64,000 bases of DNA from an uncultured Omnitrophica bacterium (GTDB taxonomy: Bacteria; Omnitrophota; Gorgyraeia; JACQQV01): assembly GCA_947085655.1 (NCBI GenBank), contig CAMTXH010000019.1, positions 3,827 through 67,826 of the forward strand, in the 5' to 3' direction. Below the pieces are notes generated by a model that was not told the origin of the DNA, searched no databases, and saw only the letters and a list, made by a program, of their open reading frames with translations. The first letter of the stretch is position 1; each line of letters starts with the position of its first letter. The translations under genes were made by a program, and so were the position numbers. Shown here piece by piece: positions 20,405 to 23,400 of this stretch.

Positions 20405-23400
20405 ATGGTACAACAAACCGAACCCAAGGAAAAAGCGGAAAAAACAGCCCGCTACGATGCCAAGAGCATTCAGGTTTTGGAGGGGATCGAGGCGGTCCGG
20501 AAGCGCCCCGCCATGTACATCGGGGATATCTCAAGCCGTGGACTGCACCACCTGGTTTACGAAGTGGTGGACAATGCGGTGGACGAGGCGATGGCCGGTT
20601 TTTGTCAGAATATCGATGTGATTCTCCGTCCGGACGGTTCCGTGACGGTGATCGACGACGGCCGCGGCATCCCGGTCGACATTCACAAGGAAGAGAAAAA
20701 ACCGGCGCTTGAGGTGGTGATGACCATGCTCCACGCCGGCGGGAAGTTCGGACACCAGGTTTACCGAGTCTCCGGCGGTCTCCACGGCGTTGGGGTGAGC
20801 GTCGTCAACGCCCTTTCGGAATGGATGGAGGTGGAAGTCCGCCGCGACGAGAAGGTGTACCACCAGCGCTATGAGCGGGGAAAGACCGCCACCAAACTCA
20901 CCGTGATTGGAAAGAGCAAAAAAAGCGGGACGCGCGTCACTTTCAAGGCGGACAAGGAAATTTTCGGCAAGAAAATCGATTACAGTTTTGAAATTTTGGC
21001 GAACCGTTTCCGGGAACTCGCCTTCCTGAACCGGGGGCTCAAAATCGAATTCAAGGATGAGCGGACGGACAAAAGCGAGGTCTTCCGATACACAGGCGGC
21101 GTCGAGGCCTTCATCGAGCACCTGAATCAGAACAAAAACTCCCTCCACAAAAAAGTGATTTACTTCCAGAAGGAAAAGGACCGGCTGAAGGTGGAAATCG
21201 CCATGCAGTATAACGACGGCTATGCGGAGAATATCCTGAGTTTTGCCAATAACATCAATACCATCGAGGGAGGAGCCCACCTCTCCGGGTTTAAATCGGC
21301 GCTCACGCGGGTGATCAATCAATACATTAAGGAAAAAGACCTCCTCAAAGAGACCGATCCTTCCATCGGGGGAGAGGATGTTCGGGAAGGATTGACAGCC
21401 GTTACCAGCGTTTGGGTGCCGGATCCGCAGTTTGAAGGGCAGACCAAAACAAAACTCGGGAATAGCGAAGTGGAAGGAGTGGTTGCCTCCGTTGTGAATG
21501 AAGGGCTTTCAACCTTCTTTGCAGAAAACCCCTCGGTGGCCAACAAAGTGGTTGAAAAGGTGGTGGTGGCGGCGCGGGCCAGGGAGGCGGCCCGGAAGGC
21601 GAGGGAACTCACCCGGCGGAAGGGTGCTTTGGAGGGGGATTCGCTCCCTGGGAAACTGGCGGACTGCCAGGAGAGAGATCCAGCGCTTTGCGAACTTTAC
21701 ATTGTGGAAGGCGATTCCGCGGGCGGATGTTTTGCCGGAGATACGAAAGTCGCCTTAACAGATGGTCGCGAATTAACCTTTGAAGAGCTGATAGCCGAAC
21801 AGCAATCCGGCAAAGAGCACTTTTGCTATACCATTCTATCGGACGGTCGGGTCGGGATTGAGCGCATTTTTCACCCGCGCAAGACCAGAGCAAACGCCCA
21901 GGTCATCGAAGTCACGCTGAATAACGGCAAGCGGATTGTCTGTACCCCTGATCACTTATTCATGTTGCGGGATGGAAACTACCGGCGGGCGGATCAATTA
22001 AGCGCGAAAGATTCGTTGATGCCGTTACACCGGCAGTTCTCGCGCATAGGCCGGCGCATCACAATAGATGGTTACGAGATGGTGTTCGATTCGGCTCTCA
22101 AGCGATGGATCTTCACCCATCTCCTTGCGGATGAATATAATCTACGCCATGGCATTTATGGGGTTGAAACCGGACCCCATCGCCACCACGCAGATTTTGA
22201 TAAACGGAACAACAATCCTCCGAATGTTAAGAGATTAACCAGGGCAATGCGGCAATGGGAAGACCCTGCTTATAAGCAATTCATGGTAGAAAAATTCTTG
22301 GAGTTTTACCATAAGTCGCCCGAGTATCGGAACCGCAACAAGCGTACCCTCGACAGGGCTCAACGGATATATTGGAGCAGTAGCGACAACCGAAAAAGGC
22401 AGTCCGAACGCGTCCGCGCATTTTATCAAACGCATCCAGAGGTGCGCGAAATTTTGGCGCGTCAGGCTAAAAAACAATGGAGTCGTGAGGACCTTCGGCG
22501 ATGGAGGAGCGATAAAACGCGTAAGCAATGGACTCCAGAATTTCGGAAAGACCGGATAGCAGCCTATAACCGCACCTACGTGCATCACTCCTTGAGATTA
22601 CTTGCTGATGTTCTTCGGGAGACGGGCAGCGCCGATAGTTATAATGAGCGGCGCAAGCGTCCCAGAAATAGTAACCTGCTTACTTTTAAAACGCTCTGCA
22701 GTCGTTTTTTTGATAACAAGCCCGAGCGCGCTATTGAAGCAGCACGCAATTATAACCATCGCGTCGTATCAGTACGCCGGCTAACGAAGTGCGTAGACGT
22801 GTATGACTTGGAGATCCCAGGGACACATAACTTTGCTTTGGCCAGCGGAGTCTTTGTGCATAATAGCGCCAAGCAAGGACGCGACCGGCGGTTTCAGGCG
22901 ATCCTCCCGATCAAGGGGAAGATTATCAATGTGGAGAAATCCCGTCTTGATAAGGTATTGTCAAATCAGGAAATACGAACAATTATCACCGCACTCGGGA
23001 CTGGGATCGAGGAGGAATTTGATATCCAAAAGCTCCGATATCACAAGCTTATCCTCATGTGCGATGCAGATGTGGACGGGTCGCACATCCGAACACTCCT
23101 TCTGACTTTCCTCTACCGGCATTTCAAGCCGCTCATTGAAAATGGCCACATCTATATTGCCCAACCGCCCCTGTATAAGATCAAGCGGGGGAAGAGAGAA
23201 GAGTATGTCCAGACAGACGAAGAGATGAACGATCTTCTCCTTGATATCGGAACCGAGAATGTCCAACTGGTTCGGATAAAGGGTAGTAAGTCATTTAAAG
23301 ATAAAGAGTTAAAGCAAATTTTAGACCTTTTGATTGATTTGGACGCCCTTACAAGCAGTTTAAGGAAAAGGGGAGTAGAACTTCAAAAATATGCCTCTTT

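Follow-up and report, generated by a model that had tools for sequence, protein, structure and literature searches.

The window analysed here, a stretch of 64,000 nucleotides from an uncultured Omnitrophica bacterium, carries on its forward strand a gyrB gene whose reading frame contains an intein. With the TIGR01059 gyrB equivalog the 1212-residue precursor reaches 1003.6 bits (cutoff 882.4), and the Pfam domains HATPase_c, DNA_gyraseB, Toprim and DNA_gyraseB_C were found in it. The features of the locus, with the evidence used to place each of them, are as follows.

20405..24043, forward strand: gyrB open reading frame encoding the 1212-aa precursor including the intein, with the stop codon inside the end coordinate (ORF list, TIGR01059, Pfam)
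20405..21727, forward strand: N-extein, GyrB residues 1–441 (translation)
21728..22864, forward strand: intein of 379 aa, class 1, Cys1 to His378-Asn379 with Ser at +1 (translation, profiles, homologues)
21728..22027, forward strand: N-terminal lobe of the Hint domain, residues 1–100, blocks A and B (TIGR01445, family alignment)
22028..22240, forward strand: preserved N-terminal portion of the HNH nuclease, residues 101–171 (alignment, PHROG 7545, AF2 strands)
22238..22243, forward strand: deletion junction, codons of T171 and R172, 53 aa gone (alignment to the nearest full-length relatives)
22241..22747, forward strand: preserved region, helical throughout, with W/ExxR-rich repeats, residues 172–340 (AF2 helices, family conservation)
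22748..22864, forward strand: C-terminal lobe of the Hint domain, residues 341–379, blocks F and G, ending SGVFVHN (TIGR01443, family alignment)
22865..24043, forward strand: C-extein, that is, the rest of Toprim, the C-terminal domain and the stop codon (translation, Pfam)

The intein occupies exactly 379 codons, is preceded by EGDSAGG, ends in SGVFVHN and is followed by SAKQGR, the insertion site in GyrB being EGDSAGG|SAKQGR. Its removal from this conserved site, where it was inserted in frame, leaves a contiguous host protein of 833 aa, which aligns from end to end with intein-free Omnitrophota GyrBs at 80–83% identity. The Pfam Intein_splicing profile PF14890 matches the intein with E = 4.4e-21 (75.7 bits, cutoff 35.8), TIGR01445 matches its residues 1–79 (48.3 bits, cutoff 24.5) and TIGR01443 the C-terminal Hint lobe (28.1 bits, cutoff 15.6), while homologous gyrB inteins were recovered with a best E value of 2.7e-132. 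A first-pass annotation of this DNA had placed a 379-aa intein at positions 21728–22864, in what it regarded as a known gyrB insertion point (GDSAGG|S), with Cys at its start and HN followed by Ser at its end. All of this is borne out by the translation, the profiles and the homologues: relatives use the same site, and the junctions are canonical.

Blocks A, B, F and G, which the same annotation had proposed to check, are all intact. The block A nucleophile Cys1 (21728–21730) occupies a position that is invariant across the family. Block B reads T73-P-D-H76, with T73, P74 and H76 invariant in the family and D75 nearly so, and block G ends in VFVH378-N379 before the Ser at +1. Every family-invariant splicing residue is kept, and sequence matches to solved chains relate the N-terminal Hint lobe to the DnaE, DnaB and NrdJ intein structures. 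These intact blocks, together with the uninterrupted 1212-aa frame and the behaviour of the related Ssp GyrB intein, whose endonuclease domain can be deleted from the natural form without losing splicing and whose mini-intein splices at >90% (PMC3620165), lead us to infer a splicing-competent class-1 intein. Given these blocks, Cys1 would start an N–S acyl shift after translation; attack by Ser+1 and cyclization of Asn379, aided by His378, would follow, and splicing would release functional GyrB. In GC and GC3 the intein is no different from the C-extein (0.54 versus 0.56), and there is thus no compositional sign of recent transfer.

The HNH nuclease region and the deletion within it

Full-length relatives of this intein are about 432–435 aa long, and the motif HH-x7-N-x3-N-x8-H-x3-H is complete and invariant in 77 of the 77 genomic ones. 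Pfam HNH_3 matches nine of ten such relatives below its gathering score (best E 2.5e-5), aligning their residues 153–177 with profile positions 22–46 of 46, and PHROG HNH families match 30 of 30 relatives, with a best E value of 2.8e-11. A tblastn search of phage genomes with the nuclease region gave two weak, unannotated matches. Profile searches of PDB sequences, built either on the entire intein family or on the HNH core alone, returned Hint chains or noise and nothing else; no solved structure of an HNH-type intein was found in the searches run. The full-length relatives are modelled as containing a beta-beta-alpha unit; in the AF2 model of one of them, P0008, beta-strands at residues 161–164 and 177–180 are followed by a helix at 182–195 that carries DHLELH. 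The same relative matches solved inteins in Foldseek. Judged by its sequence, the insert in the 379-aa copy is the descendant of an HNH endonuclease.

That copy has kept the first part of the nuclease. Its residues 101–171 comprise a beta region (ITIDGYEMV...WIFTH) and a beta-hairpin that bears H153, H154, N162 and N166. The two histidines (codons 22184–22189) correspond in the alignment to the HH that never varies in the family, and N162 (22211–22213) and N166 (22223–22225) are likewise retained; all four lie in the stretch HRHH...NNNPPN at residues 151–167. Four residues past this stretch begins an in-frame deletion with clean boundaries, which removes exactly 53 residues relative to the relatives L031, L069 and L066 (432 aa each). 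In L031 the corresponding segment reads KAEHLEEHQRH...MRTALSV, and this segment was not found at any other place in the window. The alpha-helix and both invariant histidines, H175 and H179, are gone: R175 and D179 now stand in the histidine register, and no His occurs between residues 155 and 194. What follows the hairpin is the family's usual downstream 'QWED' helix, a motif conserved in intact relatives, but in a different structural context. The AF2 model of the 379-aa intein has a mean pLDDT of 92.8, falling to 71 at residues 171–180, that is, at the deletion junction, with strands at 151–154 and 167–170 and helices throughout 180–340.

The profile searches agree with this picture: PHROG 7545 ('HNH endonuclease') gives this copy a partial match with E = 0.002 that ends at the deletion, and Pfam HNH families give the insert alone no match even at E ≤ 10. 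The HNH-like core pointed out in the first-pass annotation is partly real, in that the stretch shares homology with the HNH motif over the initial two thirds of that motif; a complete domain is not present in this copy. Lack of the structural zinc/His residues on alignment had been named beforehand as an observation that would count against the proposal, and it holds for this copy, from which H175 and H179 were deleted. The helical repeat region at residues 172–340 matches no Pfam family and presumably served the former homing endonuclease for DNA binding. Two weak Pfam matches on the insert, DNA_meth_N and TPR_Trm732_C, lie below cutoff and were judged spurious, and an antisense reading frame within the intein (22235–22588, reverse strand), considered as a nuclease gene, was rejected, having no Pfam match.

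The intein family and its known counterparts

The gyrB intein family with an HNH-type nuclease is already known and very widespread. At least 572 species-level genomes of bacteria and archaea have it at the same gyrB site, and of the 120 best homologues (out of 424) all those whose name or Pfam annotation is GyrB-specific are GyrB. The flanks EGDSAGG|SAKQGR are common to the 14 full-length relatives with a complete upstream flank, and the site pattern recovered an intein at 77 of the 80 genome loci. The earlier description of HNH inteins as a minority class does justice to the literature, though this particular family abounds in metagenomic genomes. The nearest copies, at 62–64% identity over aligned columns, are L031 and L069, labelled as Omnitrophota metagenome-assembled genomes (MAGs), and L066, labelled Planctomycetales; the idea that Omnitrophota inteins are no closer to this one than those of CPR bacteria or archaea was rejected, as the first two of these carry the Omnitrophota label.

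The Ssp GyrB intein of Synechocystis sp. PCC 6803 resides in the same host protein, is 435 aa long and begins with CFSGDTLVAL...; Dalgaard et al. reportedly identified it as HNH-type in 1997. The cyanobacterial family members recovered here are of about 435 aa and have the complete HNH motif. A homologue search from a cyanobacteria-like member gave no match named Synechocystis, and our literature search returned nothing explicit on HNH in the GyrB intein. The Ssp GyrB S11 C-intein ends in GVFVHN followed by Ser, and the C-terminal GVFVHN|S of the 379-aa intein is identical to that of this experimentally characterized element (PMC2794532). The common site and homologous sequence suggest that the 379-aa intein belongs to the Ssp GyrB-type allele family, its likeness to Ssp itself being drawn from the C-terminal hexapeptide and the Ser. 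It differs from Ssp GyrB in its length, in its Omnitrophota host and in the loss of the 53 residues where the motif's final two histidines lie.

With phage nucleases the comparison runs through the full-length relatives, which match HNH_3 (PF13392) and the phage HNH families PHROG 7545, 21964 and 15471 across the HH...N...N...H core. Their N-terminal part is rich in beta structure, the beta-beta-alpha unit comes next, and a helical extension lies at the C-terminal end, an architecture that we take to resemble that of I-HmuI. Unlike in phage HNH endonucleases, the nuclease is embedded in frame within a Hint domain, and compared with the HNH_3 and PHROG enzymes the 379-aa copy is without the alpha-helix of the beta-beta-alpha unit. 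A similar overall architecture, in other host genes, is seen in a Hint-domain protein of Bacillus phage SP-15 and in a Siphoviridae terminase; the Foldseek alignments to these two phage inteins extend over 454–491 columns, covering Hint and insert, with E values of 2e-25 and 6e-22 and 25% identity.

The 379-aa copy also resembles naturally decayed inteins and mini-inteins, which combine intact splicing blocks with a nuclease deleted in part or altogether and are patchily distributed among close hosts. The eight closest GyrBs (80–83% identity) have no intein, and other Omnitrophota GyrBs carry same-site inteins of 433, 433, 433, 379, 367, 181 and 159 aa. Family-wide, the lengths in the genomic set form a continuum from 435 to 201 aa. 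Unlike the most reduced forms, the present copy has lost only the catalytic helix region, with about 240 aa of the former nuclease intact. A cyclic model of invasion, degeneration and loss has been put forward for such elements (Goddard and Burt 1999; Burt and Koufopanou 2004, both as cited in a passage of PMC7765530).

Probable loss of nuclease activity and competing readings

Once excised, the intein of an intact relative would cleave gyrB alleles that lack an intein, at the sequence coding for GDSAGG|SAKQGR, in Omnitrophota gyrB presumably a GGCGATTCNGCNGGNGG|TCNGCNAAR-type homing target, and repair of the cut allele would copy the intein in. The 379-aa copy still has its general-base HH pair along with the structural Asn residues, but because the metal site is gone the copy is most likely nuclease-dead and immobile. 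We thus favour with good confidence, on the alignments and profile matches given above, a splicing-competent HNH intein of the gyrB family from which a single deletion of 53 aa took the catalytic helix. Such a copy would stand at an early stage of the cycle of invasion, decay and loss that is typical of homing elements; it is an ordinary selfish element that has probably lost its ability to spread. The remnant of about 240 aa has diverged no faster than its counterparts in HNH-intact sisters; of the 113 columns that are invariant in ten full-length relatives, two are changed in this copy, compared with one to five in the intact sisters. With no additional decay elsewhere in the intein, the deletion looks recent or otherwise tolerated. 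A recent deletion fits the divergence of the remnant, and continued selection on the remnant would fit equally.

Such selection is the core of the strongest competing explanation, in which a nuclease-dead remnant is retained as a DNA-binding module, as a scaffold for Hint folding or splicing, or as the partner of a nuclease acting in trans. Besides the lack of excess divergence, this explanation can draw on the recurrence of deletions that remove the catalytic helix only, with a left boundary at 170–172, in five sequences (the 379-aa copy, P0155, P0004, P0028 and P0114). Each of these is nearest to full-length copies, where tested, and the alignments suggest independent deletions in at least three to five lineages, beside full-length sisters. 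However, a recent deletion and survivorship bias fit the same data. Gyrase is generally essential, and such a bias is expected because only deletions that respect structural boundaries keep GyrB splicing. Breakpoints elsewhere in the family are scattered, and many of its mini-inteins have lost the whole nuclease region. We therefore regard a selectively retained remnant as improbable, and grant no better chance to the broader proposal that loss of the catalytic helix is a recurrent, selected outcome in the family rather than random decay. If the latter were true, a nuclease-dead, DNA-binding intein would be maintained for the benefit of the host or of the element, possibly by relieving nuclease toxicity while target binding is kept, or through homing aided in trans.

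An intact, active and still mobile HNH homing endonuclease is less probable again. Its attraction lies in the retained HH, N162 and N166 and in a remnant domain that is well conserved and confidently folded by AF2. In some HNH variants, moreover, Asn or Asp replaces the last His, as in the H-N-N of the I-HmuI type, and E178 and D179, close to the lost ligand positions, might conceivably form part of a degraded metal site. Yet the deletion took both histidines that are invariant in all of the full-length relatives, together with their helix, the hairpin now runs into the ordinary 'QWED' helix instead of a new ligand-bearing one, and Pfam HNH is silent on this copy at E ≤ 10.

It is very unlikely that the short length is an artefact of assembly or gene calling, although the source is a metagenome-assembled genome. 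An identical 1212-aa product is called in the NCBI MAG GCA_964374045.1 and in separate Logan assemblies of two sequencing runs, and a strain variant of equal length differs by one residue, in the extein; since independent assemblies and this variant agree, the length of 379 aa is not due to assembly. The in-frame, cleanly bounded deletion and the absence of the missing segment from the window point the same way. Finally, the readings as an intein of LAGLIDADG type or as a mini-intein whose linker is unrelated can be dismissed almost outright: apart from LAGLIDADG being the commonest intein nuclease, nothing speaks for them, and homology of the insert to HNH-bearing relatives extends from one end of it to the other. 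The first-pass annotation had seen no LAGLIDADG-like dodecapeptide, and no LAGLIDADG or Hom_end family matches the whole intein at E ≤ 1 or the insert alone at E ≤ 10, nor did such profiles match any of ten full-length relatives.

The nuclease-dead HNH intein favoured here is one more intermediate in the decay series of its family and matters little beyond correct annotation, for which 'intein-containing DNA gyrase subunit B; HNH-type intein, nuclease motif truncated' would be a fitting label. For phylogenetic or marker-gene work, the 833-aa GyrB left after splicing should be taken rather than the 1212-aa precursor. Taken together, the members of the family, which at one site display every stage from 435 to 159 aa, could usefully serve as a natural series in which to follow the decay of a homing endonuclease without loss of splicing in a presumably essential gene.

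The gyrB intein and its surroundings

The first-pass annotation had placed an intein in gyrB at 21728-22864, and this was borne out exactly, since translation, splicing-domain profiles and matches to solved inteins all agree. The interval translates to 379 residues (CFAGDTKV...SGVFVHN), preceded by EGDSAGG and followed by SAKQGR, and the TIGR01059 match of the gyrB product is broken between residues 442 and 820. Its matches to Pfam Intein_splicing (E=4.4e-21) and to the TIGR models of the two intein ends all exceed the respective cutoffs; in sequence comparison, both lobes of its splicing (Hint) domain match the solved DnaE, DnaB, NrdJ and RadA inteins. 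Its identity, its insertion site and the integrity of its splicing residues are therefore established. The host gene stands in a gene order of the replication-origin type (17512-26529).

Genes of the replication-origin-type region and tRNA genes of the window (six in total)
17512-18882: dnaA-like ORF, 456 aa; matches a gene with DnaA Pfam domains on matching contigs
18982-20079: dnaN, from the ORF list
20085-20402: dciA, a DciA-family gene, 105 aa (Pfam DciA, E=1.2e-13)
20405-24043, plus strand: gyrB, 1212-aa product (TIGR01059 gyrB equivalog, above cutoff)
24040-26529: gyrA; the ORF as listed begins with TTG at 24040, overlapping the gyrB stop codon
5610-5953, minus strand: cluster of three tRNAs
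26528-26602, plus strand: tRNA, its first bases overlapping the end of the gyrA ORF (26529)
40786-40978, plus strand: pair of tRNAs

Third-position GC content (GC3) drops from 0.69 in the N-terminal extein (20405-21727) to 0.54 in the intein, and the C-terminal extein (window to 24040) has 0.56; the step falls at or before the intein and there is no return after it, so the signal is not intein-specific. An antisense ORF of 117 aa inside the intein (22235-22588, minus strand) matches no Pfam family and is taken for a chance ORF. Elsewhere in the window, a c-di-GMP-I riboswitch aptamer was found at 48393-48491 on the plus strand (Rfam RF01051, 49.5 bits; gathering score 35).

HNH ancestry of the family nuclease

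The window intein gave no LAGLIDADG and no HNH Pfam match, even when the excised insert was searched at E<=10, and only a partial match to PHROG 7545 (a phage protein family, 'HNH endonuclease'; E=0.002). A search of a 5.8-billion-protein collection returned 424 homologues; among the best 120 of these, GyrB is the host of every match that is named specifically as GyrB or carries its Pfam domains. Complete relatives carry the intein at the same GyrB site, and most full-length copies, at 432-435 aa, are about 55 aa longer than the window copy. Ten full-length copies share the invariant residues H131, D135, N138, H153, H154, N162, P164, N166, R169, H175 and H179, giving the motif HH-x7-N-x3-N-x8-H-x3-H. 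Nine of the ten match Pfam HNH_3, all below its gathering score; residues 153-177 of the first cover profile positions 22-46 of 46, last His included, and one relative (P0068) carries a precomputed HNH_3 match. All 30 core-region sequences match PHROG 7545 (best E=2.8e-11) and PHROG 21964, 28 of the 30 match PHROG 15471, and 13 of the 16 PHROG families matched are annotated 'HNH endonuclease'.

The fold could be followed in the AlphaFold2 model of a nearly intein-only relative, P0008 (mean pLDDT 89.7). There the HH pair ends strand 161-164, the Asn residues lie in the loop ahead of strand 177-180, and DHLELH opens helix 182-195, after which a long helix stack extends as far as the C-terminal Hint lobe. 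As modelled, this strand-strand-helix order is the beta-beta-alpha arrangement expected for an HNH nuclease. The invariant motif, the HNH_3 and PHROG matches and the P0008 model together show that the family nuclease is of the HNH type and that the window insert is of HNH ancestry.

The deletion in the window copy

Aligned with its nearest relatives, L031 and L069 (both Omnitrophota MAGs) and L066, each 432 aa, the window intein is the same element minus exactly 53 residues (RLT/KAEHLEEHQRHAAATLRRPEVVEKVRRLHRTPQFRERIRQKMLEPEMRTALSV/RA(K/M)RQWED), with the junction at codons T171/R172 (22238-22243); identity is 62-64% over aligned columns, or 55-56% when BLAST counts the gap. This precise deletion takes both helix histidines: R175 and D179 stand in register of the two invariant histidines, and residues 155-194 contain no His. 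In the model of the window intein (mean pLDDT 92.8) the hairpin is kept (strands 151-154 and 167-170), confidence falls to 71 at residues 171-180, and the helix that follows is the family's downstream 'QWED...' helix. The window copy thus keeps the 'H' and 'N' of H-N-H; the final histidines and the helix are gone. The strict motif is complete in all 77 inteins taken from the best genomic loci (best 80 of at least 572 genomes). The earlier proposal of an HNH rather than a LAGLIDADG nuclease holds for the lineage and fails for the present state of this copy, whose HNH-like stretch lacks the final histidines on alignment, an outcome that had been named beforehand as telling against it.

Gene calls on a contig of an NCBI MAG and on separately assembled contigs of two sequencing runs give an identical 1212-aa product, and there is also a variant that differs by one residue, in the extein. 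No frame of the window holds the missing segment at another place. Compared with seven outgroup inteins, the window copy shows the same level of identity as its three HNH-intact sisters in the Hint domain (0.62 versus 0.62-0.64), the retained HNH part (0.63 versus 0.59-0.67) and the helical part (0.43 versus 0.40-0.45), and of the 113 columns that do not vary in ten full-length relatives only 2 are altered, against 1-5 in the sisters (leave-one-out control). Judged by these comparisons the copy looks undecayed apart from the deletion; the two readings are a recent deletion and continuing constraint on the remnant. That the remnant is maintained for some function we consider unlikely, and the recurrence of one deletion boundary bears on this reading. 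Left boundaries of deletions in the family are scattered from residue 98 to 358; five sequences (the window copy and the homologues P0155, P0004, P0028 and P0114) have deletions starting at residues 170-172, right after the second HNH strand, which remove the HNH catalytic helix, three of them ending at residue 238. These events look independent, since the window copy, P0004 and P0155 each adjoin different full-length copies in a neighbour-joining tree without support values. The shared start could reflect a deletion hot spot or survivorship, the simplest reading being the latter: GyrB would remain able to splice only where a deletion respects structural boundaries.

In HNH enzymes such as colicin E9 and I-HmuI, one or more residues of the helix ligate the catalytic metal. 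Because that helix is deleted here, the window copy has most likely lost cleavage activity, and with a dead nuclease it could no longer home; that its nuclease is still active, on the strength of the retained 'H' and 'N', is highly improbable. Splicing would be retained, as the splicing blocks are intact, there is precedent within the family and gyrase is generally essential. The helical repeat region is the putative DNA-binding part. We are fairly confident of the account as a whole, namely a splicing intein of HNH ancestry whose nuclease was killed by the 53-aa deletion and which has lost homing.

Spread, erosion and known relatives

A scan with one genome per species found the intein encoded in at least 572 genomes, the best 80 of which include many CPR/Patescibacteria lineages, DPANN and Methanosarcinales archaea, a cyanobacterium (Lusitaniella), Nitrospira, Omnitrophota and others. 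Judged by its spliced GyrB, the window host is a Candidatus Omnitrophota bacterium. None of the eight GyrBs closest to it (80-83% identity, 808-830 aa) contains an intein; among the more distant Omnitrophota GyrBs (65-69%), about seven carry one at the same site, of 433, 433, 433, 379, 367, 181 and 159 aa. All complete inteins retrieved form a continuous range of lengths from 435 down to 201 aa; 15 of them have the HNH motif, 11 lack it and one has half of it. Patchy occurrence at one site, with erosion in graded steps, is the textbook pattern of a homing element passing through invasion, degeneration and loss, a cycle reportedly modelled by Goddard and Burt and by Burt and Koufopanou (both cited in PMC7765530).

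The window intein adds a new, partly decayed member to a family that is well known and very common, and NCBI already names relatives 'intein-containing DNA gyrase subunit B'. The intein identified as HNH-type in the 1997 study of Dalgaard et al. is reportedly the 435-aa GyrB intein of Synechocystis PCC 6803. Links to this Ssp GyrB intein include the many cyanobacterial GyrBs that fall in the same family, and a C-terminal GVFVHN followed by Ser that the window intein shares exactly with it (PMC2794532). The natural Ssp GyrB intein has an endonuclease domain, complete removal of which leaves >90% splicing (PMC3620165). Among viral structure models (BFVD), a full-length relative matched A0A127AYL6 (a Hint-domain protein of Bacillus phage SP-15) and A0A8S5M786 (a Siphoviridae terminase) across Hint plus insert (454-491 columns, 25% identity, predicted structure); the same overall architecture of Hint, HNH-like insert and helices thus appears to occur in phage genes.

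The intein portion of NCBIfam NF052663, a curated model named 'intein-containing RctB family protein', matches the window intein with 131-134 bits over profile positions 77-322, which suggests that an unrelated host protein carries a related Hint domain and perhaps some of the insert as well. The relative P0002 has Ser in place of Cys at intein position 1 (SAGG followed by SFSGETQV). P0004, the closest protein match, begins MLGAVGLEKTEVALTDG and lacks Cys1 and the upstream extein, so that its start is miscalled or else its gyrB is disrupted.
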